Positions 1 to 10,287 of a stretch of DNA of 16,043 nucleotides are shown piece by piece. Numbering within the stretch: position 1 is the first letter of the stretch; the number at the start of each line of letters is the position of its first letter. The DNA is from a virus. The translations under genes and the position numbers were made by a program. The notes below the pieces were generated by a model. It worked only from the letters and a program-made list of their open reading frames with translations, did not search any database and was not told where the DNA came from. The stretch lies in the IMG/VR virus record IMGVR_UViG_3300033405_000009, one strand, 5' to 3'.

Positions 1-580
1 TGGTCACCATGATTTCCTCGATGAGGTCCCTTTGCTGGGACCTCTTGGTCTTGGAGAGCATCTCCCGTGCGCTCACGAAACCTGACGCGTAGGTCTCGCA
101 GAGCGTGCGGACATGGGCGATCTCGAGGGCGATCTTCTCGGGCTCGGCGTTCTTGTAGACGTCCATGAAGGACAGGTCCGGATTCACCGTAAGCTGCAAC
201 CTCGCTGGACGCGAATCCGTAGTAGGGAGCTGGGTGACCACAACCTCGACGCGGTATTTCATGCTTTGAAGCCCCATGGACACTTCCTGGGCCAGGCCCC
301 AGTCCTCCGTAGTCAAGATGGGCTTGGCGAGTACATCCTTGTTGGCCTCCAAAACTACATCCCGGCGCTTCTCGCGGAGAAGCTGGTCGTGCCAACGCAA
401 GAGAACACACACGCGTTCTGCTTGCTCATCCTTGCTCTTCAGCTGCTTCCAATCCGTGGGATGCTTGTGGTGCACGTGCTCGAGAGCCAAGAAGAGTCTC
501 TCCAACTCATTCTTGCTACATTCTTGCCCCAGCTTGTAAGACTCCCGCGGTGCATTCTCGATCGTGGTCTCAGGCGTCAT
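1..580 (-). CDS. Hypothetical protein, 3'-partial (runs off window start). My own translation of the minus strand from the ATG at 578-580 gives more than 190 codons without a stop (MTPETTIENAPRESYKLGQECSKNELERLF...). It is not in the ORF track because no stop lies inside the window.
   Basis: Long open frame in a GC-rich region. A GGAGG Shine-Dalgarno lies 6 nt upstream of the ATG (586-590 on plus, read as cctcc). The conserved promoter motif F sits immediately upstream. The plus-strand ORF 113..643 on the opposite strand is L/R-rich with an antisense look. Confidence 0.55.
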   Translation of the reverse strand, partial: MTPETTIENAPRESYKLGQECSKNELERLFLALEHVHHKHPTDWKQLKSKDEQAERVCVLLRWHDQLLREKRRDVVLEANKDVLAKPILTTEDWGLAQEVSMGLQSMKYRVEVVVTQLPTTDSRPARLQLTVNPDLSFMDVYKNAEPEKIALEIAHVRTLCETYASGFVSAREMLSKTKRSQQRDLIEEIMVT

Positions 581-597
581 CTGAACCTCCACGATCG

Positions 598-624
598 AGT
601 ACGCATCGGCCCGGACAACTTACG
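598..624 (-). promoter_or_regulatory. Conserved promoter/leader motif, instance F. In gene orientation it reads CGTAAGTT-N12-GCGTAC-N8-GGAGG-N6-ATG.
   Basis: One of 6-7 copies of a bipartite motif seen directly in the sequence (plus strand: GTACGCATC...AACTTACG). It is followed by an SD and the start of gene 1..580. The N12 spacer contains the inverted repeat CGGCCCGG/CCGGGCCG. Confidence 0.5.
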
Positions 625-658: not shown

Positions 659-1063
659 TCAGAAGCCAGGAACACCTGCGCCGCCGCTGTGGCCCTGCGC
701 GGCCTCCTTCTCCTTCTGTGCGGTATCGCCGTCGATGAGCATGGTGTAGAACTCGTTCTCCGACAGGATCTTCCAGCCGTTGCGCTCGGCCTCGATGAGC
801 TTGGAACTCTTCTTCGGCTGCACGGTGCTGTTCGCGTTCCAGTCCTTGTTCGTGATGAGGAACCGCTCCCGGCCCCAAACGTTCTTCGGGCGCTCCTCGA
901 AGGCCCCACCCGCGCGCTGGATGATCGCTACGATCTCTTCGCGAGGACGTCCGAGGTGCCCCGTGATGGAGAACGTCTTGCCCTTGAGCACACCCGTGAT
1001 CTCCATCACGTCGATCACTGCCGCCAGATTCGCCTCATCCGTCTTCGTTCGTGCCATGTTCAT
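659..1063 (-). CDS. BRCT-domain protein (134 aa)
   Basis: The central segment GKTFSITGHLGRPREEIVAIIQRAGGAFEERPKNVWGRERFLITNKDWNANSTVQPKKSSKLIEAERNGWKILSENEFYTML matches the BRCT fold pattern as seen in the C-terminus of NAD-dependent DNA ligase: a GKT(F/V)(V/I)TG... segment, a hydrophobic core and a W-(K/R)-I-L/ee-F motif. The gene is GC-rich, has an ATG start and a GGAGG SD, and motif B lies upstream. Confidence 0.55.
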   Translation of the reverse strand: MNMARTKTDEANLAAVIDVMEITGVLKGKTFSITGHLGRPREEIVAIIQRAGGAFEERPKNVWGRERFLITNKDWNANSTVQPKKSSKLIEAERNGWKILSENEFYTMLIDGDTAQKEKEAAQGHSGGAGVPGF

Positions 1064-1110: not shown

Positions 1111-1611
1111 TCATTTGTCCATCACATCAGTAATGAATGATTCTCGAAGATCACCGCTGCCTTCTCGACAACAATCCTCGTATTCCTTGTATGGATCTAG
1201 AAACAGTCGCACCAGGATGAGATCCATTCCTACATCGAATTTGGAAGAACCGATAGATGCTTGTAGTAGCGCCCTTGGAACTGCGAGGTGTGCCATAACC
1301 CGCACATTTGGATCCTCAAAATCATGCGAGTCCTCTTTGCGTTGCGCAAGATGACGAAGGACTTTCGCAAGGTCAAATTTTCCTTCAAGGAGAAAGACTT
1401 CATCTTCCATCAGTTCATTGTCGGCATCCGGAAGATGGCTCTTAAGCAGCCACACGGATCTCCACTTTTGAATAAATGCGTGGAGAGCGTCTTCGGTTTG
1501 GACCTGATTCAGTTCGTTTAGATACGACTCCACGATCTCATTGGTTGCAGCAGCCCTATCTCGGTCAAAAGGAATGACCGGCAAGTCTAGCAAACACTTA
1601 TCTTTGATCAT
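1111..1611 (-). CDS. Hypothetical protein (~166 aa). The start is probably the internal ATG at 1611, which forms an ATGA overlap with the upstream gene's stop. The ORF track extends it to 1665.
   Basis: ATGGCTTCATGATCAAAG gives MAS* followed by MIK at the junction. It is an AT-richer small gene in a coupled operon. Confidence 0.45.
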   Translation of the reverse strand: MIKDKCLLDLPVIPFDRDRAAATNEIVESYLNELNQVQTEDALHAFIQKWRSVWLLKSHLPDADNELMEDEVFLLEGKFDLAKVLRHLAQRKEDSHDFEDPNVRVMAHLAVPRALLQASIGSSKFDVGMDLILVRLFLDPYKEYEDCCREGSGDLRESFITDVMDK

Positions 1612-2015
1612 GAAGCCATCACTTCCCAGCACATCCATTCCTTGTGAGTCAGGAATTGGATGCAATCTCCTGGTTCCGATGCCCTAAGGGCCTCGTAACA
1701 TTTGACAATCTGAGTAACATCCACGCCCGGAGGGATCGCAATTTTACACGGGTACCTCTGGTCGATCTGATCTTTGGTATCCTTGAGTCCGTATCCGAGA
1801 TGCTCTCGGAGAATCTTGATGCACTGAATCTTATTTACAGGATGCTTTGTGATCACGAGTGAACGTTGTGTGGCGTCGGGCATCCCCATGGCCACTGCAC
1901 CACGCCAGGCCGTCTTGCAAAAGACAATGAACTGTTCTTCGGTCAGAGTATCCGATTCTTCGGACAACTCCATGACCAGGTTTGTGTCACCCGTTACGCG
2001 CAGGTAAATCTTCAC
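1608..2015 (-). CDS. Small protein with a ribosomal L7/L12 C-terminal-domain-like segment (135 aa, GTG start).
   Basis: NKIQCIKILREHLGYGLKDTKDQIDQRYPCKIAIPPGVDVTQIVKCYEALRASEPGD resembles the L7/L12 C-terminal domain (K-IGVIK-VRE-TGLGLKEAKDLVD-AP...VSK--AEE-K--LE-AGA). The GTG start overlaps the upstream stop as GTGA. Confidence 0.4.
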   Translation of the reverse strand: MKIYLRVTGDTNLVMELSEESDTLTEEQFIVFCKTAWRGAVAMGMPDATQRSLVITKHPVNKIQCIKILREHLGYGLKDTKDQIDQRYPCKIAIPPGVDVTQIVKCYEALRASEPGDCIQFLTHKEWMCWEVMAS

Positions 2016-2500: not shown

Positions 2501-2866
2501 TCAACTTTCCAAAACGGACTTTACGAGCGCCTCATCCAGGATTTTTTGCATCTCATCCGGAGTGCGAATATGAATCAAGGCCTCGAAAAGATATGATGCC
2601 GTCGTATCTTCTTTGAAAGAGCGACCCTTCCCAAAAATGAAAATCTTCTTCCGAGGAGAATGTTTCTTAAAACGCCACTTATCGATTACGGATGAGACGA
2701 GAGGATAAGGAGTCCCCGGTTGACAACGAAAATCCGGCCAAATGGAAAGAGCTTCCCAAATAGCGAGATCATTAATTTGCATGCCAATGACGCTAGTATG
2801 CGAAATGTGAGCCGTCAACTGCTCCACTTTAGTGGAGAGTGTACCGAATAGAGAATCTTTCTTCAT
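2501..2866 (-). CDS. Hypothetical protein (121 aa)
   Basis: ORF in a coupled minus-strand array. It overlaps the upstream gene by 4 nt and ends in the C-terminal motif ...VLES. Confidence 0.45.
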   Translation of the reverse strand: MKKDSLFGTLSTKVEQLTAHISHTSVIGMQINDLAIWEALSIWPDFRCQPGTPYPLVSSVIDKWRFKKHSPRKKIFIFGKGRSFKEDTTASYLFEALIHIRTPDEMQKILDEALVKSVLES

Positions 2867-3186
2867 TCCTCCATCACTAGCTTTACAATCGCGTTGTCAG
2901 TGATATTTTTCATTTCCGTGCGCGTGCGAATGTATGCAACAGTCTGCATTCGTACTTTGTGCACGAACAGGAAGAGCGTAAATCCTCGCGCGTCGTCCGG
3001 TTTGCATCGCCACATGTCTACTACATCGGAGATGAAATACTTCGAATGCCCGTCTCTCATGCGCTGATTGTCTTGCGAGGTGACAAGCACAGTCCACAGT
3101 GCTTCATCAGTCACATCGACACCGACAATCCGAGCCTTCGGCAACCTGCGACGAAACTCCGCCACTCTGTCAGATACGAAACTCAT
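2863..3186 (-). CDS. Hypothetical protein (~107 aa; ATG at 3184-3186, 1-nt TGATG overlap with the upstream stop).
   Basis: ORF in the coupled array. TTGATGAGT lies at the junction. Confidence 0.45.
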   Translation of the reverse strand: MSFVSDRVAEFRRRLPKARIVGVDVTDEALWTVLVTSQDNQRMRDGHSKYFISDVVDMWRCKPDDARGFTLFLFVHKVRMQTVAYIRTRTEMKNITDNAIVKLVMEE

Positions 3187-3734
3187 CAAGCCACCATGAC
3201 ACCTTCAACTAGGATGAGATCCATCATTTCGATGATCTCATCTCGAGTTACGCCGTTTTCAAATGCCGATTTCAATGCCGGTTGAATGATGTCAAGCGCC
3301 ATCTTCCTTCCATGGGCGCGCTGCTTCTTCTCCGGTTCACCTCGATTGATGTAATCCACCAACTGATCATGAAATTTCTTCCCAGCCCCATTACTGATGA
3401 TTGCCTCGAAAATGGCGTGTCCGTATCCAACTTGACCCTTCAATTTCGCTTGGAGTTCTTCGGTTCCATGCTTCTGGAAGGCATGCATGAGTTTACTATC
3501 ATAGTCGTACCAGGTACGACTATCCATGATCTCATATACTGGAAGACGCAATTCGAGCTTAGGTTCAAACGGAGGAGTTGGATCGCCTTCAAGCACGAGT
3601 CTCACCAGAATCGAAGAGCCCGTCTTATTAACAGGTCTAATACTTTTGATTGAATATCGTGCAATGGCTGCATCCACCCGTCGATACTCGGGTGTTGCCA
3701 AGATCTTGGCTCTCCATTCTGCATCCGAAAGCAT
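3186..3734 (-). CDS. Hypothetical protein (~182 aa; ATG at 3732-3734).
   Basis: GGAGGATTGATG provides a strong SD 5 nt before the ATG. The SD spans the upstream stop. Confidence 0.5.
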   Translation of the reverse strand: MLSDAEWRAKILATPEYRRVDAAIARYSIKSIRPVNKTGSSILVRLVLEGDPTPPFEPKLELRLPVYEIMDSRTWYDYDSKLMHAFQKHGTEELQAKLKGQVGYGHAIFEAIISNGAGKKFHDQLVDYINRGEPEKKQRAHGRKMALDIIQPALKSAFENGVTRDEIIEMMDLILVEGVMVA

Positions 3735-3744
3735 CAATCCTCCG

Positions 3745-4095
3745 TCATGAGTTTAGGACAGATTCCACGATAGCTCGATTCAGGCGCTCTTCGAGTGCGG
3801 CATGCGGACCGATATGGATGGTTACATATCCACGCGAACGATCTCGAAAGGCAAACAGAGTCAGAGGGACCGCGTTTTTGTGTGCCTTCACATTGCGCCG
3901 GTCCCAAATCTTGCGAAGTTCCACAACGCTGGAAGCACTAACGGATTCATCCCGGCGGAGAACATTCCACACAGGAGAATCTACGTTCCAGACTTTGCAA
4001 TTCTTGGTAACATGACGGCGAAGAGTGTCCTCCAGCAATCCGATATTCTTCACTCGATCTAGGATTCCGGCAGAGTAATCCATACACCGACTCAT
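3745..4095 (-). CDS. Hypothetical protein (116 aa)
   Basis: ORF with an ATG start 1 nt after the upstream stop (TGAAATG). Confidence 0.45.
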   Translation of the reverse strand: MSRCMDYSAGILDRVKNIGLLEDTLRRHVTKNCKVWNVDSPVWNVLRRDESVSASSVVELRKIWDRRNVKAHKNAVPLTLFAFRDRSRGYVTIHIGPHAALEERLNRAIVESVLNS

Positions 4096-4096
4096 T

Positions 4097-4291
4097 TCAT
4101 GAGTTCATGATCATCCCAACCAGATACTCTTCCATGGAAATCGGTGACGGCCAACCCCAATTCCGATGCGGTGCGCACCTGCACAAATAAAGCCCGGCAA
4201 GGTAGTGGAACTGCACTTTTTCAGCACCACAAGGCTTCCCCCTGAGAGGACCGTGCTCGTAAATGTAATCACATTGGAATTTCTCAGGCAT
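4097..4291 (-). CDS. Small Cys-containing protein (~64 aa, MPEKFQCDYIYEHGPLRGKPCGAEKVQFHYLAGLYLCRCAPHRNWGW...). The ORF track's longer 128-aa version overlaps the VWA gene and the hairpin, so I trimmed it.
   Basis: ATG at 4289-4291 with a GGGTG SD-like sequence upstream. There are four Cys residues that could bind a metal. The 20-bp hairpin lies immediately upstream of it. Confidence 0.35.
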   Translation of the reverse strand: MPEKFQCDYIYEHGPLRGKPCGAEKVQFHYLAGLYLCRCAPHRNWGWPSPISMEEYLVGMIMNS

Positions 4292-4302
4292 GATCGCACC
4301 CG

Positions 4303-4347
4303 TGCAGTATATGGCAGGGATCATTGCGATCCCTGCCATATACTGCA
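4303..4347. promoter_or_regulatory. Perfect hairpin with a 20-bp stem and 5-nt loop (TGCAGTATATGGCAGGGATC-attgc-GATCCCTGCCATATACTGCA). It sits between the VWA gene stop (4353) and the next gene start (4291).
   Basis: Exact inverted repeat read directly from the sequence. No U-tract follows on either strand, so it is not a canonical intrinsic terminator. It could instead be an RNase III-type processing site, a protein operator or an attenuator. Confidence 0.6.
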
Positions 4348-4352
4348 GACTA

Positions 4353-5954
4353 CTAGAGCCTGCTGTTGCGGAGCGGAGCCACGCGCCCGAAGGAGGGCTT
4401 GTACTCCTTCGACTTGCGGGTGATGACCCACACCACGTCCATCCCAGAGGGCCTGAGCTTCTCGGGGACCACGCCGCAGTCACCGTCCGTGATGATGATC
4501 ACCACGTCGAACTCCTTCCCCAACTTCTCAGGGAACTCCGCGAAGAACTGATCGAAAACCGTGCCTCCGCGGCCGACGATCTTCGTCCGCTTGATGTCGC
4601 TCTTCTGCGTGACCCTCTGCACCTCGTCCCACTTCGGCGAGGCATCGCAGCAGACCAGATGACCCTCGGTGTTGTCTCCGAGGACCTGAAGTTGGGAAAG
4701 CCCATAACGCAGATCATCGTCGCTCATGGACCCGCTCGTGTCGATCATGGCAAGCCACCGAGGCATGTGGGTGTGCCGGCGAGGCAGGTACTGCTTGGGG
4801 GTGGCATTGAGCCACCGCCGCCGCAGACGCTTCCAATCGTTCTTCATGCCGGCGTCCTGCACCTTCCGCATGAGAGCGGACCGCACGATATCGGTGAACT
4901 TGAGGGTAGGCTTGTACAGCTCCCCGAGGACATCCTCGATGTCGCTGGGAACCGACCCACGCATCGTGACAGCAGCTTGCGCTGCTCTCATGACATCGCT
5001 CATCACCTCTTCCTTGGTGACGGCCGCCTGCATGTGGGCGTCCATAGACGACAAGGGATCGTGCGAGGAGCCGCACTTGGGGCAGCTGTGGTCTCCCGGG
5101 TCTCCGTGTCCATCCCCACACTGATGGGGACCTTGCCCTTGACCACCACCAGGCTGCTGCCCGTTCTGGCCCTGTCCTTGGCCCTGTCCAGGGCTCTGGC
5201 CCTTCTGACCAGGCTTCTGCCCCTTCCCACCCTGACCCTGCTGTCCCTGGCCCTGCTTCTTCGCCTTGCCGGTCTTGGGATCCATGGAGAGAGCGCCGCA
5301 CTGAGGACACTTGCGGGGGCTCTTGTCCCAATGCTTCATGATCTCTTCGTAGATGCTCTCGGGCGAGCGCCCGTGGAGCGTCTTATCCGCGAAGACGCGG
5401 GACTTGCCGTCATCGGGGATCTCCTGCTTGCCGTCGATGAAGGCGAGGAGCTCTGCGAAGGGGAGGGCCTCACCGAGCGCACCACCCCAGAGCTTGGGAC
5501 CCTTGAAGCCGGCCTTCTCACGCGAGATCTCGATCACCGCGTTGACAACGTAGTCGATGGCCCAGTTGAAGATCCGGGGGTTCATCCCGAGCCCACGCTG
5601 GCAATGGTAGAAGATGACGTGGTAACCTTCGTGCTCCATGACGACGGGAACCTCGTCGCCGTTGAGGCTCGCGAGGAAATCCGGATGCCAGTAGAACTTC
5701 TTGCCATCCGTGGCCGCCGTGGTGAACATCCCCTTCGGGTGCCCCGGCAACTCGTCGGCCAGCTCGTGCGGCTTCGGCGCCGTCAGCGCAAAGAGGAAGG
5801 GGTTACCACCGTTCGAAGGTTGGCGGTAGAGCCGCGTCATGCAATTGGTGATCTTGGTCTGAAGCTCCGCCAAGCGGGCGTTGTCGTAGGAGCCGTCCTC
5901 CTGCTTCAACACCATGCGCGGATCCTTGAGCCGTGCTCCGATCGTCGTCATCAT
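4353..5954 (-). CDS. VWA-domain protein with an N-terminal HExxH putative metallopeptidase domain (DUF2201/vWA-MoxR-associated type; CobT/ViaA-like partner of a MoxR ATPase), 533 aa.
   Basis: HEGYH zinc-peptidase motif near aa ~110. MIDAS motif DTSGSMSD and VVIIITDGD in the C-terminal VWA domain. Central split Zn-ribbon CPQCG...CPKCG. GC-rich, ATGATG start, and motif A with GGAGG upstream. Confidence 0.75.
   Translation of the reverse strand: MMTTIGARLKDPRMVLKQEDGSYDNARLAELQTKITNCMTRLYRQPSNGGNPFLFALTAPKPHELADELPGHPKGMFTTAATDGKKFYWHPDFLASLNGDEVPVVMEHEGYHVIFYHCQRGLGMNPRIFNWAIDYVVNAVIEISREKAGFKGPKLWGGALGEALPFAELLAFIDGKQEIPDDGKSRVFADKTLHGRSPESIYEEIMKHWDKSPRKCPQCGALSMDPKTGKAKKQGQGQQGQGGKGQKPGQKGQSPGQGQGQGQNGQQPGGGQGQGPHQCGDGHGDPGDHSCPKCGSSHDPLSSMDAHMQAAVTKEEVMSDVMRAAQAAVTMRGSVPSDIEDVLGELYKPTLKFTDIVRSALMRKVQDAGMKNDWKRLRRRWLNATPKQYLPRRHTHMPRWLAMIDTSGSMSDDDLRYGLSQLQVLGDNTEGHLVCCDASPKWDEVQRVTQKSDIKRTKIVGRGGTVFDQFFAEFPEKLGKEFDVVIIITDGDCGVVPEKLRPSGMDVVWVITRKSKEYKPSFGRVAPLRNSRL
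5100..5290. repeat. Low-complexity CTGGCCCTG-type simple repeat. It encodes a GQ/PGQ-rich linker (KKQGQGQQGQGGKGQKPGQKGQSPGQGQGQGQNGQQPGGGQGQGP) inside the VWA protein, between the two CxxCG halves.
   Basis: Imperfect tandem repeats are visible in the DNA and the protein. Confidence 0.6.
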
Positions 5955-6012: not shown

Positions 6013-6237
6013 TCAGCTTTCCAAAATTGCATTTACGATAATTTCCTCACAAGTGAGACGTACAACTTTACGAACATTCCAAGCATCCGTAGCAGGGGTT
6101 CTCAAATGAACTTCCATTTGCAAATCTACCGGCGGAAGCTCAGGATTCCAAGAGGAGGATTTACAATTGGAGCAAATCCACTCGGGCGGCAAAGGTTTGC
6201 CACCGGAAATGACCCCGCGCCGCCATACATGACCCAT
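6013..6237 (-). CDS. Hypothetical small protein (74 aa), ends ...ILES.
   Basis: ORF with an ATG start. It is the first gene of the AT-rich cassette downstream of motif A. Confidence 0.35.
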   Translation of the reverse strand: MGHVWRRGVISGGKPLPPEWICSNCKSSSWNPELPPVDLQMEVHLRTPATDAWNVRKVVRLTCEEIIVNAILES

Positions 6238-6272: not shown

Positions 6273-6707
6273 CTATTTCTCAATGGAGAAGGCCAACTTG
6301 AGTTTATCAAATTCAAACCATGGAGGTCTTCCTCGTTGATAGTTTATGAGTAAGGCTCCGGTTCTATATAAAATGAAAACGCGAGCATGCTCTTGTGGAT
6401 TAGCGAACCACTCAGCGAACTTCCTATTCTTGTAAGAATCTCCGATCTGTGGACCTAAGAGGTCAATGTATTCCTTTGACATAGCAAAAACTTTAACGGA
6501 TGCTTTACCGTTCCATCCCATTGAACGTGCCAATCGTACTTCTTCATCATCCATATCCGGAGGAATAGCAACTACCACGGCTCCCATGCTTGTTAATCGT
6601 AGGATTCGTGTCTCATTAGGGAGAATGACGTTGCGCATGATGATGTCAATCACCTTCTGGCGCTCTTCATCATTATCCATCAAACTTGCGGGTTTGTATT
6701 CGTGCAT
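6273..6707 (-). CDS. Hypothetical protein (~144 aa; ATG at 6705-6707, TGATG overlap).
   Basis: AT-rich ORF, translationally coupled to the upstream gene. Confidence 0.45.
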   Translation of the reverse strand: MHEYKPASLMDNDEERQKVIDIIMRNVILPNETRILRLTSMGAVVVAIPPDMDDEEVRLARSMGWNGKASVKVFAMSKEYIDLLGPQIGDSYKNRKFAEWFANPQEHARVFILYRTGALLINYQRGRPPWFEFDKLKLAFSIEK

Positions 6708-6910
6708 CACGATTCCATGATTTCAAAAATCAAGAATTCTTCATCGGTCAGTTTCTTCCATTTATTGCGATTATCATTCTCGGATAGCATCGCCATAACT
6801 GAGCTTGGATGACACTCTTCACAAAAGAGATCCATTACAACAAGATCGTTCTGATAGAAGTACTCGTATCCAAATGAGGCATCCTTCTCACATCGGTCAC
6901 ATTGAACCAT
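6707..6910 (-). CDS. Small Zn-ribbon-like protein (~67 aa; CDRCEK...CEECH).
   Basis: Two CxxC pairs. ATG at 6908-6910 overlaps the upstream stop as TGATG. Confidence 0.4.
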   Translation of the reverse strand: MVQCDRCEKDASFGYEYFYQNDLVVMDLFCEECHPSSVMAMLSENDNRNKWKKLTDEEFLIFEIMES

Positions 6911-7203
6911 CAATTCTCCATAGAACTACGTACGATTTCGAGATCACACTCTGTCTCATCATGGTGCAATTTCGCTGTAGACCAGTAGAAACCACCACAT
7001 CTTGAACATGTCTCCGGACTCGCTAATCTGGGAAGGGGTGAGAGTGATTTATATTCAGGATGAGGTGGCCCATACCAAATCACCCCAACCACGATTGCAA
7101 TTAATCCGGCGATGCAAAAGACGCCTCCGAAAATCGAACGTTCAGCCGCAGCCCATGCAATACCAAACAGGAAAATTGTGAACCAAACTGAAAGAATCTT
7201 CAT
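6910..7203 (-). CDS. Small membrane protein with two predicted TM helices (ILSVWFTIFLFGIAWAAA; IFGGVFCIAGLIAIVVGVIWY) and a Cys-containing soluble C-terminus. It may be holin-like.
   Basis: Hydrophobic segments with an ATG start. The start has a 4-nt ATGA overlap with the stop of the upstream gene 7200..7586. Confidence 0.45.
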   Translation of the reverse strand: MKILSVWFTIFLFGIAWAAAERSIFGGVFCIAGLIAIVVGVIWYGPPHPEYKSLSPLPRLASPETCSRCGGFYWSTAKLHHDETECDLEIVRSSMEN

Positions 7204-7586
7204 TTGGCGCCATTCCGAATCTTAAGCACTTCTGCATGAAGCACATCCAACGCGGCTCGCGTCCGACCAAGAAGAAGAGCATCGTCCGCTGGAACTACAA
7301 CTGCTACAATCAAACGACTTCGTTTCTTTTGACGAAACCGCTGGGCTTCCTTCGGTGAAGATTTTGATTGAAGATAGAGAGGACCGACATCAGTCTCTAC
7401 TACCACATCAATCCCACAAGCATCTTCCGCTTTAGTCGCTAGACGTACGCTCGTGATCCACGCACGACCCGTGTTCAATCCCTGCGCGCCGAGTGTGGCG
7501 AGGTTTTGTACCGCATCGACAAGCCGACGCTCTGAGACTTGACCGCGCTCATTTGAGACATGCCCGAGTAGTTTAGAGACTCTCAT
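7200..7586 (-). CDS. Hypothetical protein (128 aa). GIDVVVETDVGPLYLQSK may be a PD-(D/E)xK-like motif, which is weak evidence.
   Basis: ATGA overlap with the upstream gene. Confidence 0.4.
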   Translation of the reverse strand: MRVSKLLGHVSNERGQVSERRLVDAVQNLATLGAQGLNTGRAWITSVRLATKAEDACGIDVVVETDVGPLYLQSKSSPKEAQRFRQKKRSRLIVAVVVPADDALLLGRTRAALDVLHAEVLKIRNGAK

Positions 7587-7765
7587 GTATCCAGCACCGA
7601 GCGTACAATTTCAAGAGTTGGATCTTCCAAACAATCGGATTGGACCCATTCTCGCCAGTCAAAATAATATGGGCGAAGCCCATTCATTTCGGCTTTGCAC
7701 TTAGAGCAAACATATTCATAATCCAGGTCCAGTTCCAGAACTGGTTGCCAGTCGTGCGCTGTCAT
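7583..7765 (-). CDS. Small Cys-containing protein (~60 aa, MTAHDWQPVLELDLDYEYVCSKCKAEM...). The ORF track's TTG-extended start at 7816 is less likely.
   Basis: Internal ATG. The long structured non-coding region lies upstream. Confidence 0.35.
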   Translation of the reverse strand: MTAHDWQPVLELDLDYEYVCSKCKAEMNGLRPYYFDWREWVQSDCLEDPTLEIVRSVLDT

Positions 7766-8045
7766 CCGGATTGATTTTACAGACAGACGAGAAGCCCGAA
7801 GCCGGGACCATCCCAAGCTACGGGCTTCTCTGGAGGCAACGCCATGCCTGGCGCCGACCTTCTTAGGGCCAACAGGCCCGAAATTACGAGCGGGAAATTT
7901 ACCAGTGATCTCTAGACGCCTCCCGCTCTACTAGGCGACGCCGAATCTTTCGATTCGACCCTGGGGAACCTGTAACGACCCGAGAGACGCCGGGTGATCC
8001 CATTGGCTTGCCCATCGATCACCCGTACGCGCGCGATCGAGCGAT
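7766..8045 (-). other. Highly structured non-coding region. It is a candidate ncRNA or a long regulatory 5' leader, transcribed from the motif variant at 8011-8040.
   Basis: About 230-280 bp with no ORF. It holds several perfect inverted repeats: GAGAAGCCCG...CGGGCTTCTC (10 bp), GAGCGGGA...TCCCGCTC (8 bp), CGGGTGATC...GATCACCCG, GGGCCaacaGGCCC, and a CCGAATC-tttc-GATTCG hairpin (GAAA tetraloop on the minus strand). Confidence 0.35.
8011..8040 (-). promoter_or_regulatory. Variant of the conserved motif (TAGATC-N12-GCGTAC) with no coding gene directly downstream.
   Basis: Plus strand shows CCGTACGCGCGCGATCGAGCGATCTATG. It has the same 12-nt spacing and GCGTAC box as instance F. Confidence 0.35.
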
Positions 8046-8240
8046 CTATGTAGTCTTCTTTGGCAGCCGTCGTACATTTTTGCATTTAGTGACTAAGATC
8101 ACTGAATTCATCTTGTCAGCTTTCACAGAGCACTCATCTCCGGATATTTCCATTACTTCTCCAGTGAGACTGCGGTGAGGTCCGGTTCTAATGTGAACCT
8201 TATCAGACACTTTGATGGGGACAATTGCCATACGCGCCAT
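8046..8240 (-). CDS. Small KOW-like domain protein (64 aa).
   Basis: IVPIKVSDKVHIRTGPHRSLTGEVMEISGDECSVKADKMNSVILVTKCKNV follows the KOW pattern (G-D-V-V-i--GpF-g--G-V-ev-----v-V-----------V---vek) seen in NusG C-terminus/L24-type proteins. The start overlaps the 3' end of the HNH gene. Confidence 0.35.
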   Translation of the reverse strand: MARMAIVPIKVSDKVHIRTGPHRSLTGEVMEISGDECSVKADKMNSVILVTKCKNVRRLPKKTT

Positions 8241-9117
8241 ATGAAAAATTACAATTATGGCATAGAACTCGATAACCAGTCGGGAATTTATTCTTGATCA
8301 ACCATTTCTGGAAAACGTTGCCCCTCTTGTCGATTTCCTTGCGATGATCATTTCCTCCACCGTGGATGTGATCAATCGCGAGAACATCAGTATCTTTGAC
8401 GGCACAACATGCACAAGATGGAATGGGAGCGCTGTAGTGAACTAGACATTCCATCTTGATCTTGCAATCGTAGGCATACTTTGCAAGAGCCATCTTCTTC
8501 AAGTCGACGGGATATGGCACTCCCTCGATGATTCGAGTCTTAAACGAATTAGTCTCATCCCAAATCTTGTTTTCAAAGGCTTTGCGTTGAAGTCGCAAGG
8601 ATTCTTTGCCGTTACAATTATGGCAAAGGACTCGATAACCGGGCGGGAATCCGGATTTCTCGAGCCATAGCAAATATCGCTCGGTTTTGCGACCGAGGAA
8701 CTCACGATGGATGTTGCCTCCACCCGTGATGTGATCTAGGCAGAGGAAGCGGAGCTTCAACTCCTCACACAAGAAGCACTTCGGGATTCCACCAGAGTAA
8801 ACGCCATAAACGCGAACTCTGATGTCCTCACGCCTATCCTTCATCTGCGCGAGGACGTCTTCCTTATTCTCTGCGTAATATTTGGCGTTGTACGCAGAAG
8901 CCTTATCGGGATTGGCTAGCTTGAATTGGCGGGTCTTTTCTTGACTCGCCTTCGGGTCAGCTGCGTATCGCGCCGCCCGTGCATCCTTATCACACTGGAT
9001 GCACTTGTACGTATATACGTCACGACCTTTGTAGGTATATGCCTTATATCGACGGAATCCCTCATCTAGAGATTGGATCCCATGAATACGACAAGCCCGG
9101 GTCGGTGTGTTGGTCAT
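8203..9117 (-). CDS. HNH endonuclease with two tandem HNH/Zn-finger modules (304 aa).
   Basis: Two copies of C..C...DH(I)xGGGNxHR...FPxGYRVLCHNCN: CLDHITGGGNIHREF...RVLCHNCN and AIDHIHGGGNDHRKE...RVLCHNCN. The gene is AT-rich. It is a paralog of gene 12453..13115. Confidence 0.75.
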   Translation of the reverse strand: MTNTPTRACRIHGIQSLDEGFRRYKAYTYKGRDVYTYKCIQCDKDARAARYAADPKASQEKTRQFKLANPDKASAYNAKYYAENKEDVLAQMKDRREDIRVRVYGVYSGGIPKCFLCEELKLRFLCLDHITGGGNIHREFLGRKTERYLLWLEKSGFPPGYRVLCHNCNGKESLRLQRKAFENKIWDETNSFKTRIIEGVPYPVDLKKMALAKYAYDCKIKMECLVHYSAPIPSCACCAVKDTDVLAIDHIHGGGNDHRKEIDKRGNVFQKWLIKNKFPTGYRVLCHNCNFSYGAYGNCPHQSV

Positions 9118-9147
9118 GCTGAGAACCTAACACCAACCCGGGCTTGT
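9091..9147 (-). promoter_or_regulatory. Long imperfect hairpin that encloses the HNH start codon and SD (ACAAGCCCGGGT(T/C)GGTGTT...loop with AGGTTCTCAGCATGACC...AACACCGACCCGGGCTTGT).
   Basis: 12 perfect bp plus 5 more bp of stem seen in the sequence. The ATG at 9115-9117 lies in the loop. The hairpin sits 20 nt after the MoxR stop. Confidence 0.55.
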
Positions 9148-9168: not shown

Positions 9169-10287
9169 TCACTCGTCCTTCATCGCCTGACGAATTTTGA
9201 GGAATGCCTCCATGAACGGGGCCACCTTCGTGAGCTTGTGGTCCTGAATCATCTTCATGTTCATGACGCTCTTCGCAGCACCGATGCAGAACTCCGAGGG
9301 GAGCTTGCGGAGCCACCCGAACACGTTGTCCGTGGTCTTGTGGAGCTTACGCTCGTGCGCCTCCTTGTCGGAGCCGGAGGGCGTCACGCGGCAGAGGGCC
9401 GCCACGGCGTTCACGGCGGAGATGGCGCAAACGAACTGGCGATCGATCTCCATCTTGTCGAGATCGGGGTGCTTGCCCTCGCGGACCAGCGCCTCGATGA
9501 GCGGCTCGATGTGGCGGTAGTGCTCCAGCCACACCTTGAACTTGACCGCGGAAGCCATCCCCACGCGACCCGCCACCAGCATCGTCTGGAAGTCGACACT
9601 GGAGAGGTGGCGCTCCGAGCCGTTGGTGAAGTCCAGGTCCTTCGCCGCCAAAGTCCACGCGCGAGGCGAGGGGTGGCAATACGCCGTGGAGTCGCCCTCG
9701 GGCGGGGGCATCAGGAGCTGCTCCTGATTCTTGCTGAGGAACCCGACGATGAGGGGGTTGACCCCTGCGCCCGTGGCCCACTCCTGCCACGGCTCGAAGG
9801 CGTGCGTCACGCGGTAGACGCCGCACCGATTGGTGAGGGCGTGCGAGACGGGGAGCGAGAAGGCACCCTCGTCAGGCAGGTTGCCCGTCGCGATGACCGC
9901 GTGGATGTTCATCTTGCGACCGTTCATCGCACGGAACTGGAACAGCTCGAGGCAGGGGTTCTGCAGCTCGGGCTTGGCCTTATCCACCTCGTCCACGAGG
10001 AGGATCACCGGCCGCTCGTCCTTGTTGTAGAGCGGGATGGTCTCCGGCGGAGCATAGGTCGTCTTGCCGTTCTCCACGAGAGGCAGACCGATCATGTCGG
10101 GTGCCTCCAGGACGGAGAGGTTGAGGTAGACGTAGCGAAACTTCTCGTTCTCGCACGCCTGCATGGCCATCTCGGTCTTGCCGATACCGGCCGGGCCGAA
10201 GGTCATGAGATTGCCCCCGGTCCGAATCGTGAACTGCAGCACCTTCATGAGGTGCGCCTGATCGAGCTCCGTAACACCAGTTAGCAT
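9169..10287 (-). CDS. MoxR-family (AAA_5) AAA+ ATPase, CobS/RavA-like (372 aa).
   Basis: Walker A FGPAGIGKTEMA. Walker B VILLVDEVDKA. Sensor-1-like HAVIATGN. The length and single-AAA architecture are typical of the MoxR/CobS class. GC-rich, with motif C and GGAGG upstream. Confidence 0.75.
   Translation of the reverse strand: MLTGVTELDQAHLMKVLQFTIRTGGNLMTFGPAGIGKTEMAMQACENEKFRYVYLNLSVLEAPDMIGLPLVENGKTTYAPPETIPLYNKDERPVILLVDEVDKAKPELQNPCLELFQFRAMNGRKMNIHAVIATGNLPDEGAFSLPVSHALTNRCGVYRVTHAFEPWQEWATGAGVNPLIVGFLSKNQEQLLMPPPEGDSTAYCHPSPRAWTLAAKDLDFTNGSERHLSSVDFQTMLVAGRVGMASAVKFKVWLEHYRHIEPLIEALVREGKHPDLDKMEIDRQFVCAISAVNAVAALCRVTPSGSDKEAHERKLHKTTDNVFGWLRKLPSEFCIGAAKSVMNMKMIQDHKLTKVAPFMEAFLKIRQAMKDE

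Follow-up and report, generated by a model that had tools for sequence, protein, structure and literature searches.

Genes and sequence around the hairpin

The window analysed here, the whole 16,043-nucleotide stretch of IMG/VR record IMGVR_UViG_3300033405_000009, carries a perfect hairpin between a gene for a VWA-like protein (VWA gene) and a small ORFan. Both flanking genes lie on the minus strand, which the first-pass annotation had left unstated. The features are listed from high to low coordinates.

9169..10287, strand not given: AAA_5 ATPase gene, upstream, from the domain search
4353..5954, minus strand: VWA gene, 533 aa, putative metallopeptidase plus VWA-like domain (DUF2201_N and DUF2201; Pfam E = 3e-22 and 5.5e-11)
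4350..4355, minus strand: two consecutive in-frame TAG codons as the stop of the VWA gene, read from the sequence
4328..4347, minus strand (sense): 5' arm of the hairpin, UGCAGUAUAUGGCAGGGAUC
4323..4327, minus strand: 5-nt loop of the hairpin, GCAAU on the sense strand, not conserved in sequence across the family
4303..4322, minus strand: 3' arm of the hairpin, GAUCCCUGCCAUAUACUGCA
4313..4337, no strand assigned: conserved family core at the stem top, GGCAGGGATC-N5-GATCCCTGCC, from the family alignments
4292..4302, minus strand: 11-nt spacer before the next ATG, CGGGUGCGAUC, with a weak Shine-Dalgarno-like GGGUG at 4301-4297
4097..4291, minus strand: downstream ORFan, 64 aa, first gene of the variable slot, from the ORF list

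The VWA gene sits about 8 kb into a long co-directional array in which many genes are small and unannotatable, and from this array we infer that the spacer holding the hairpin is transcribed. Only AAA_5, DUF2201 and BRCT domains were recognised in the 20 window ORFs that were scanned; these ORFs are mostly unannotatable, no HTH or other DNA-binding domain was recognised among them, and no recombinase or integrase was found. The VWA gene is a GC-rich island (~63% GC), and the G+C content steps down at the hairpin to ~49% downstream. Five nucleotides separate the first stop codon from the hairpin, which starts at the 6th, and 11 nt separate its other end from the ATG at 4291-4289, in agreement with the 6 nt and about 10 nt that the first-pass annotation had given for these distances.

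The 64-aa ORFan has no Pfam or PHROG match, and no homologue of it was found 3' of VWA in 12 related loci. The JGI gene caller begins it, in frame, at an ATG made up of loop and 3' arm (4325-4323); we rejected this start codon, which would be hidden by the stem and lacks a Shine-Dalgarno sequence. In the MFE fold the spacer at 4292-4302, with its weak Shine-Dalgarno sequence and the start region, pairs with the stop-codon region at 4348-4353. Translational coupling through sequestration of the Shine-Dalgarno and start sequences in this lower helix was dropped as the main mechanism because the pairing is not conserved in the relatives. The word TATGGCA was likewise considered as a regulatory motif (8 matches in the contig versus 1.5 expected) and rejected, the excess coming from a direct repeat inside a 304-aa gene.

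The VWA protein is encoded verbatim on the 33.5-kb JGI metagenome contig Ga0326724_0002049. Homologues of it number 614 at E<=1e-20, the largest of their contigs measuring 436, 398, 377, 330, 303 and 296 kb; one relative is the 436-kb IMG/VR contig IMGVR_UViG_3300032782_000001, whose VWA protein is 63% identical. A megablast search with 2.4 kb around the hairpin gave no match to GenBank phages, and tblastn of VWA found no close cultured relative (at most 28% identity, to N4-like and other GenBank phages). Since the homologues lie on huge contigs and no cultured phage is close, we assign the window to an uncultured huge-phage clade. Loci of VWA relatives were gathered from IMG/VR, from a metagenome collection and by exact-protein look-ups.

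Structure of the hairpin

The two arms, 4303-4322 and 4328-4347, are 100% complementary and form the exact 20-bp inverted repeat with a 5-nt loop that had been described. It is indeed the longest inverted repeat of the window, and its length is not due to chance: 100 mononucleotide-shuffled versions of the window had as their longest perfect inverted repeat (loop of at most 12 nt) one of 7-13 bp, versus the 20 bp observed. No second copy of the arm was found within the window with up to 3 mismatches allowed. Folding of 111 nt around the hairpin as RNA gave -52.8 kcal/mol (z = -5.7; none of 200 shuffles was as good), and the hairpin alone gave -37.5 kcal/mol. As single-stranded DNA, 55 nt folded with -24 kcal/mol (z = -9.5).

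A G+C-rich stem-loop directly 3' of a gene is what an intrinsic terminator has, the stem here being much longer than typical. The first-pass annotation had nevertheless judged the hairpin not to be a canonical terminator, and its flanks bear this out. No T-run follows the stem on the minus strand (CGGGTGCGATC) or the plus strand (GACTACTAGAG), a run meaning five or more T among 8 nt at a distance of 0-2 nt from the stem; the hairpin was not listed by the terminator scan, and in the relatives no consistent T-run follows it. Canonical intrinsic termination is therefore unexpected. A complete stop of transcription is also unlikely, since the next gene starts 11 nt downstream, and in 9 of the 12 family copies described below the distance is 11-21 nt; with efficient termination the downstream genes would be silent, barring a promoter that overlaps the hairpin, and a promoter scan found no promoter-like site near 4290-4360. 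As to processing, the continuous double-stranded RNA in the intergenic spacer, 20 bp in the window and 23 bp in one relative (L046), reaches the ~20 bp or more that RNase III sites have, and judged by its length the hairpin is a plausible substrate for an RNase III-type enzyme.

Conservation of the hairpin 3' of VWA

A homologous hairpin lies directly after the VWA stop codon in seven relatives (L002, L046, L123, L129, L131, L126 and L127), whose VWA proteins are ~50-63% identical to that of the window. It starts between -1 and ~10 nt past the stop, and its core reads (G)GCAGGGATC-N5-GATCCCTGC(C), or the close variant GCCAGGGGTC. The hairpins found 3' of VWA in these loci are the following.

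L002: TATATGGCAGGGGTCGT-t-ACGACCCCTGCCATATA
L046, 23 bp: GGAGGACATATGGCAGGGATCGT-a-...
L123: AAATATGTGGCAGGGAT-cgttcaa-...
L129: GTGGCAGGGATCTCG-t-...
L131 and L126/L127: GTCTGCCAGGGGTC-N5-GATCC(C/T)TGGCAGAC

Three other loci (L047, L050 and L053) have perfect 17-19 bp hairpins at the same place after VWA, those of L047 and L050 with the TATGGCA word on the opposite arm. The homology of these last two to the family is uncertain, the covariance model giving 34.5 bits for L047 and E = 0.13 for L050. No comparable perfect hairpin (at least 8 bp) was found within 150 nt of the VWA stop in L130, L124/L125 and L128, and L121/L122, with the VWA protein closest to that of the window (69% identity), retain a 7-bp hairpin remnant only. 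The VWA gene is thus not strictly dependent on the hairpin.

The exact arm of the window is absent from IMG/VR, and the full outer palindrome matches one relative only. Another 42 matches to a 15-mer half-site in IMG/VR were set aside as chance, with no dyad surrounding them. The first-pass annotation had advised looking for the same palindrome elsewhere, allowing that it might turn out unique and unconserved; that doubt is removed by the relatives, in which the hairpin is both conserved and repeated.

Covariation and further copies of the family

In an alignment of eight copies, 90.6% of the cells are paired and two-sided changes occur at 12 of the 20 pairs, a level reached by none of 500 shuffles; sliding the partner by 1-3 columns lowers pairing to 35-47%. 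The corresponding values for 12 copies are 88.3% paired, compensatory changes at 15 of 20 pairs, no shuffle out of 500 as high, and 33-42% in the slid controls. One compensatory change falls within the half-site (G-C to C-G at alignment columns 20/46). The loop is unconserved and the outer stem varies freely in sequence with its complementarity kept, while the stem-top columns A-G-G-G / C-C-(C)-T (U in RNA) are invariant or nearly so in the 12 copies. Between the words GGCAGGG and CCCTGCC nine copies have a spacer of 11 nt, L129 and L132 one of 13 nt. Judging from these alignments, the pairing is under selection.

A covariance model built from eight copies, together with pattern scans, was used to find copies away from VWA. 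Five more were found at other small-gene boundaries, in three relatives.

L046, second copy: after the gene next to VWA, which is thereby bracketed by two hairpins; the copies are less than 700 bp apart
L132, on an IMG/VR contig of 274 kb: just past a 68-aa gene
L268, 20-bp stem and 5-nt loop: directly after a stop codon
L268 copy 2, 16-bp stem and 5-nt loop: 168 nt past the previous stop codon and 21 nt before an ATG, followed by TGGTAAAAT
L268, 12-bp stem that includes a U·G pair: just past a stop codon

The L132 copy may lie between convergent genes, although small minus-strand ORFs follow there. The three copies of L268 span no more than 600 bp, close to the opposite end of the 436-kb contig, and in both L046 and L268 family copies in direct order bracket genes. 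A search of 24.6 kb of the window's own contig with the covariance model, filters off, gave no further copy; genome regions hold from 1 to about 4 copies, with ~3-4 in the 436-kb relative. Stems are 20-23 bp long in three copies and 15-17 bp in L002, L123, L129, L132 and L268 copy 2. The placement of the copies suits a 3'-end element, as 10 of 12 begin 0-10 nt past a stop codon; in 9 of 12 the distance from the hairpin to the following start codon is 11-21 nt. Some conservation is seen in the 3' flank as well (CAYAYAT...), unpaired stretches included.

The clade also has long perfect palindromes of unrelated sequence, such as one of 25+25 bp without a loop in L268, and in each of the seven loci looked at, a strong hairpin, again unrelated in sequence, comes after the AAA_5 gene; hairpins behind genes seem to be a general trait of the clade, which accords with a role at transcript ends. 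Hairpins follow VWA, AAA_5 and several small genes; many window genes overlap or abut with no hairpin between them. The scans TGGCAGGG..CCCTGCCA and CAGGGATC..GATCCCTG returned mostly unrelated hairpins among the matches listed, and among those matches huge contigs are represented by L132, L268 and, less surely, L262 and L339 only. When 20 bases are specified, the core is present at 35 single sites in very diverse bacterial genomes, many of them with a T-tail like that of ordinary terminators; no host clue, CRISPR array or REP-like family emerged from these 35 sites. To judge from this distribution, the core is a workable terminator stem that arises repeatedly and is neither host-specific nor CRISPR-like. 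We regard the hairpin itself as belonging to a family of stem-loops at gene boundaries that is specific to this clade of uncultured huge phages.

The genes on the 3' side of the hairpin vary between loci. The first of them is an ORFan in every hairpin-bearing locus, and the genes further on are common to subsets of loci. In L130, which has no hairpin, VWA overlaps by 4 nt a conserved gene whose L046 homologue sits after the series hairpin-gene-hairpin-gene. The hairpin is placed at a junction of conserved and variable genes. The boundary between conserved gene and variable slot had gone unseen in the first-pass annotation.

RNA or DNA as the active form

A stem of this length had at first been taken for either an RNase III-class substrate or the operator of a dimeric protein. 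The former part of this claim stands, a structured RNA remaining plausible in view of the 20-bp stem, the compensatory pairing and the G·U pairs on the sense strand, if with stems of only 15-17 bp in many family members; the operator is weakened by outer complementarity in non-conserved sequence, the 11- or 13-nt spacer and the preference for folding on the sense strand. This preference is seen in the imperfect copies, which fold better on the sense strand by 11.6 (L126), 6.7 (L131), 2.3 (second L046 copy, L046b) and 2.3 kcal/mol (L268_3), the reason being that on this strand the non-Watson-Crick pairs are G·U. The strands of perfect copies differ by at most 1.8 kcal/mol. Counted as independent events the wobble bias is ~4-5 versus 1, a difference short of significance.

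In the majority of copies all pairs are Watson-Crick over 15-23 bp. Stems so nearly perfect exceed what RNA folding needs and suit a DNA cruciform or a homogenising process at the DNA level. Conservation of the stem top beyond structural need hints at a sequence-specific partner. Folded RNA rather than DNA is nevertheless favoured as the active form, if not proven, since complementarity is kept without conservation of sequence, the spacer length varies, and the imperfect copies fold preferentially on the sense strand.

Proposed role and alternatives

With moderate, roughly even, confidence we propose that the hairpin is an mRNA stem-loop that punctuates a polycistronic transcript at the junction of a conserved gene and a variable slot, as an exonuclease barrier, an RNase III site or an attenuator without a U-tract. 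Most likely it marks the end of one message and the start of the variable gene slot. The palindrome would be transcribed within a long minus-strand polycistronic message, and the transcript would fold into a very stable stem-loop (~-37 kcal/mol) right behind the VWA stop codons. This stem-loop could halt exonucleases that work 3'-to-5', offer a cleavage site to an RNase III-type enzyme, or terminate some of the polymerases without a U-tract, with the outcome that the conserved VWA message and the downstream accessory ORFs would reach different levels. Precedents for roles of this sort are the jumbo-phage terminators with conserved motifs (PMC11512511), the hairpin-ended transcripts of Mimiviridae (PMC4402537), the RNase III sites of T7 and the REP stabilisers. 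Both the activity as RNA and the choice among these three RNA-level outcomes are what we infer. As near-identical hairpins recur at several small-gene boundaries, they could also serve as short homologies for the gain and loss of cassettes; cassette exchange would then likely be a consequence of the repeated regulatory hairpins.

A double-stranded DNA operator, on which a dimeric phage regulator would bind the half-sites GGCAGGGATC and GATCCCTGCC and repress or activate the downstream genes, is quite improbable. It accords with a 10-nt half-site that is conserved at ~50-63% VWA identity and recurs in different gene contexts, with the N5 spacing of most copies, which puts the GGGATC and GATCCC centres ~11 bp apart, with the clustering of copies, in L268 three to 600 bp and in L046 two to 700 bp, and with the short distance to the next start codon in 9 of 12 copies. 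Conserved inverted half-sites are thus present, but neither is the spacing fixed nor is conservation limited to the contacted bases: complementarity runs 5-13 bp past the half-site through non-conserved sequence, for which a protein operator has no need; the distance between the GGCAGGG and CCCTGCC words differs by 2 nt between the nine copies and L129 and L132, which a rigid dimer would tolerate poorly; and half-site positions change as compensatory pairs, as in the G-C to C-G exchange. The much better folding of imperfect copies on the sense strand, the lack of an overlapping sigma-70-like promoter and the lack of a recognised HTH protein nearby weigh on the same side. A promoter or 5'-UTR element of the downstream gene, either an N4-like hairpin promoter or a 5' stem-loop that stabilises the message, is very improbable. 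The same proximity to start codons would fit it, as would L268 copy 2, far from a stop (168 nt), near an ATG (21 nt) and followed by TGGTAAAAT, the partial conservation of the unpaired 3' flank, and the way in which the hairpin seems to travel with inserted ORFans. In L002, L129 and L131, however, a strong Shine-Dalgarno sequence lies 4-10 nt after the stem and so leaves no room for a start site 3' of the hairpin; the stems are 15-23 bp long as against 5-7 bp in N4-type hairpins, no match to -10 or -35 elements was found, and L268 copies 1 and 3 come directly after stop codons with a start far off or absent nearby.

A recombination element at the DNA level, a cruciform or repeated microhomology through which a recombinase, a resolvase or homologous recombination would insert, delete or swap small-gene cassettes beside conserved genes, with any effect on RNA secondary, is unlikely, if worth keeping in view. 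It would be like the shuffling that PeSLs mediate and, at a further remove, like integron attC sites. The gene content speaks for it, with an ORFan first after VWA in all hairpin loci and a conserved gene in that place in L130, which lacks the hairpin; so do the genes of L046 and L268 that are bracketed by directly ordered copies and the sharp step in G+C from 63% to ~49% at the hairpin. Stems that are nearly always perfect, short loops and the loopless 25+25 palindrome of L268 would favour cruciform extrusion, and the PeSLs of T4-like phages offer a precedent (PMC4122927). Yet the link with variable slots may mean no more than that such slots house the intergenic regulatory signals, the window scan turned up neither recombinase nor integrase (AAA_5, DUF2201 and BRCT being the domains recognised), the strand asymmetry of imperfect copies is not what a cruciform or a symmetric enzyme would favour, and the copy number is low (1 in 24.6 kb of the contig, at least four in the 436-kb relative). 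To the narrower proposal of a dedicated sequence-specific system, in which a phage factor would recognise the GGCAGGGATC stem top on a folded strand or cruciform and insert or excise ORFan cassettes, we give a slim chance; it would be akin in function to capture at integron attC sites, with unrelated sites. Least probable is the view of the palindrome as a miniature mobile element whose insertion is selfish or neutral and does nothing for the phage. Several family copies in differing contexts would agree with it, as would a core that is found singly at 35 places in unrelated bacterial genomes and is in this respect not special to the clade. The orthologous position is, however, kept down to ~50% VWA identity with compensatory changes that preserve the stem, no target-site duplications or terminal features were found, and the copy number is very low.

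For huge phages known from metagenomes only, essentially no regulatory signals have been mapped so far, and a conserved, covarying and easily searched hairpin family would provide a handle for finding transcript boundaries. The family is a testable case of 3'-end formation without a U-tract in a bacterial virus, and its hairpins mark junctions of ORFan gain and loss in huge-phage genomes. Should they be recombination sites rather than RNA signals, they would help to explain how accessory genes build up in huge phages.

Comparison with known systems

The RNase III sites of T7 early and late mRNA and of lambda sib are intergenic stem-loops of about two helical turns without U-tracts, which separate cistrons and leave a protective 3' hairpin; in T7, internal loops direct a single cut. 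The hairpin of the window resembles them as an intergenic stem-loop of about two turns, without a U-tract, in a polycistronic phage mRNA (if transcribed as proposed), and differs from the T7 sites in its perfect stem, for which a double RNase III cut would be expected. Enterobacterial REP elements stabilise mRNA 3' ends and are imperfect, chromosomal and present in hundreds of copies per genome. An extragenic palindrome after a stop codon that would block exonucleases independently of a U-tract is common to both; unlike REP/RAYT palindromes, the present family is perfect, low in copy and phage-borne. Integron attC sites differ in that here the inner rather than the outer part is conserved, the stem has no bulges, and no integrase domain was found in the scanned ORFs. 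Promoter hairpins of the N4 type have a 5-7 bp stem and a 3-nt loop, with the start site a few nucleotides downstream, whereas the window has a 20-bp stem and a 5-nt loop, and in relatives a Shine-Dalgarno sequence comes right after the stem.

In the Mimiviridae, hairpin signals occur after most genes. Mimiviridae transcripts end at palindromic hairpins that are cut by a viral enzyme (PMC4402537). Shared features are palindromic hairpins directly after genes in a very large viral genome and the lack of U-tracts, with cleavage a proposal in our case; the Mimiviridae signals are those of a eukaryotic virus, precede polyadenylation and have no conserved sequence, whereas here the stem top is conserved and hairpins are documented for few genes.

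Searches of general collections did not place the family. No Rfam family scored above its gathering threshold (the best hit, miRNA-precursor noise, had 24.5 bits against a threshold of 100), no CRISPR array was found in the window or the loci, and the bacterial core matches are single sites only.

Other large phages offer parallels. The PeSL and PmSL elements of T4-like phages are stem-loops that combine terminator and promoter (PMC2839356, PMC4122927); PeSLs join a short stem-loop to a sigma-70-like early promoter, are present in many copies, flank variable ORFs and mediate their exchange (PMC4122927). Like them, the present hairpins are sequence-conserved intergenic stem-loops of large phages, found where conserved genes border on small variable ORFs or ORFans, and in some relatives they recur and bracket genes; unlike them, they have perfect 15-23 bp stems and no promoter consensus, with 1 to ~4 copies per genome region. 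Experimental 3'-end mapping in the jumbo phages phiKZ and 201phi2-1 gave terminators with conserved motifs, 52 of 132 sites being predicted as factor-independent, and long stems were discussed as resistant to antitermination (PMC11512511). These terminators share with our family that they are phage-specific, sequence-conserved hairpins after genes; ours lack the U-tract, are known from sequence alone and belong to an unrelated uncultured clade. Set beside these systems, the hairpin is best described as a clade-specific intergenic stem-loop of phages, one without an Rfam family, which would be regulatory and of a fairly ordinary kind.

Hairpins and Start Codons

Two window hairpins enclose the start signals of the gene that follows, and a third inverted repeat lies within one of these genes:

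Stems with start signals in the loop, and a third inverted repeat, in the window
9091-9147, minus strand: start signals in loop; next gene encodes a 304-aa protein (8203..9117)
548-608, minus strand: start signals in loop; next gene starts at 580
8414-8458: third inverted repeat, 12 bp with a 21-nt loop, within the 304-aa gene

The stems at 9091-9147 and 548-608 are 18-20 bp long, each with at least one mismatch, and their 21-nt loops, which resemble each other (TAGGTTCTCAGCATGACCAAC vs AGGTTCAGATGACGCCTGAGA), contain both the Shine-Dalgarno sequence and the ATG of the next gene, the 3' arm coinciding with codons 4-9. This design may serve to control translation.

An ATG is also present in the window copy of the conserved-core hairpin family, downstream of the VWA gene. 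Spanning the junction of loop and 3' arm, with two bases from the loop and one from the arm (4323-4325, minus strand), it is in frame with the downstream ORF, and the JGI gene call (75 aa) begins there. Loops ending in AT occur in three family copies (the window, L131, and copy 1 of L268, part of a 436-kb contig). Use of this ATG as a start is probably an annotation artefact.

A Hairpin Trails the AAA_5 Gene

A strong hairpin lies ~10-100 nt 3' of the AAA_5 ATPase gene in all seven loci that we examined. Its position is conserved, while the sequences are unrelated.

Hairpins 3' of the AAA_5 gene
Window 9091-9147, the same site as the start-codon-in-loop stem
L046 3519-3644
L047 1861-1902
L050 2797-2828
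L121 3029-3057
L123 2326-2359
L129 871-902

Gene Content of the Window

The VWA (4353-5954) and AAA_5 (9169-10287) genes have a GC content of 61-63%, vs 44-49% in their small neighbours, a pattern suggestive of a mosaic in which conserved core genes are interspersed with accessory genes of recent acquisition. In the VWA protein, a Q/G-rich, low-complexity linker (approximately residues 216-300; window about 5100-5350, minus strand) separates the metallopeptidase-like and VWA-like domains. It is flanked by two CxxC pairs, zinc-ribbon-like in appearance, whose cysteines are invariant among 36 homologues.

Many of the small window proteins end in a similar motif, (I/V)-V-x-S-(V/I)-(L/M)-(E/N/D)-(S/N/T)-stop:

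Small genes with the C-terminal motif, all on the minus strand
2501..2866
2863..3189
3745..4095
4097..4291
6013..6237
6707..6913
6910..7203
7583..7816

The products of 2501..2866 and 2863..3189 are paralogues detectable by BLASTP, and that of 3745..4095 is similar to this pair by eye. Several of these genes have stop/start overlaps. The motif could reflect a shared helix or constraints imposed by the ribosome-binding site of the next gene.

Elsewhere, a 134-aa ORF (659..1063, minus strand) encodes a BRCT domain; several relatives also carry this conserved ORF downstream of VWA. The match of a 135-aa ORF (1608..2015, minus strand) to the ribosomal protein L7/L12 C-terminal domain falls just below threshold (24.9 bits, cut-off 25.9). 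The 304-aa gene (8203..9117, minus strand) contains a direct DNA repeat of ~40 nt, ATTCCCG.C.GGTTATCGAGT.CT.TGCCATAATTGTAA (L001 7305-7345 and 7668-7710), which is why TATGGCA appears over-represented in the contig.

Palindromes Elsewhere

A perfect intergenic palindrome of 25+25 bp, lacking a central loop, is found at L268 11949-11998, ~350 bp upstream of the three-hairpin family cluster on the 436-kb contig, IMGVR_UViG_3300032782_000001. In unrelated viral contigs of 23-63 kb (L324, L331, L340, L361, L396; L346, L357, L377), hairpins of the form GCTGTGCAGGGATCG..CGATCCCTGCACAGC are adjoined by a third, direct copy of TGCAGGGATC. These look like alternative-pairing or multi-site elements; their core word is identical to that of the window hairpin family, but the arrangement is different.
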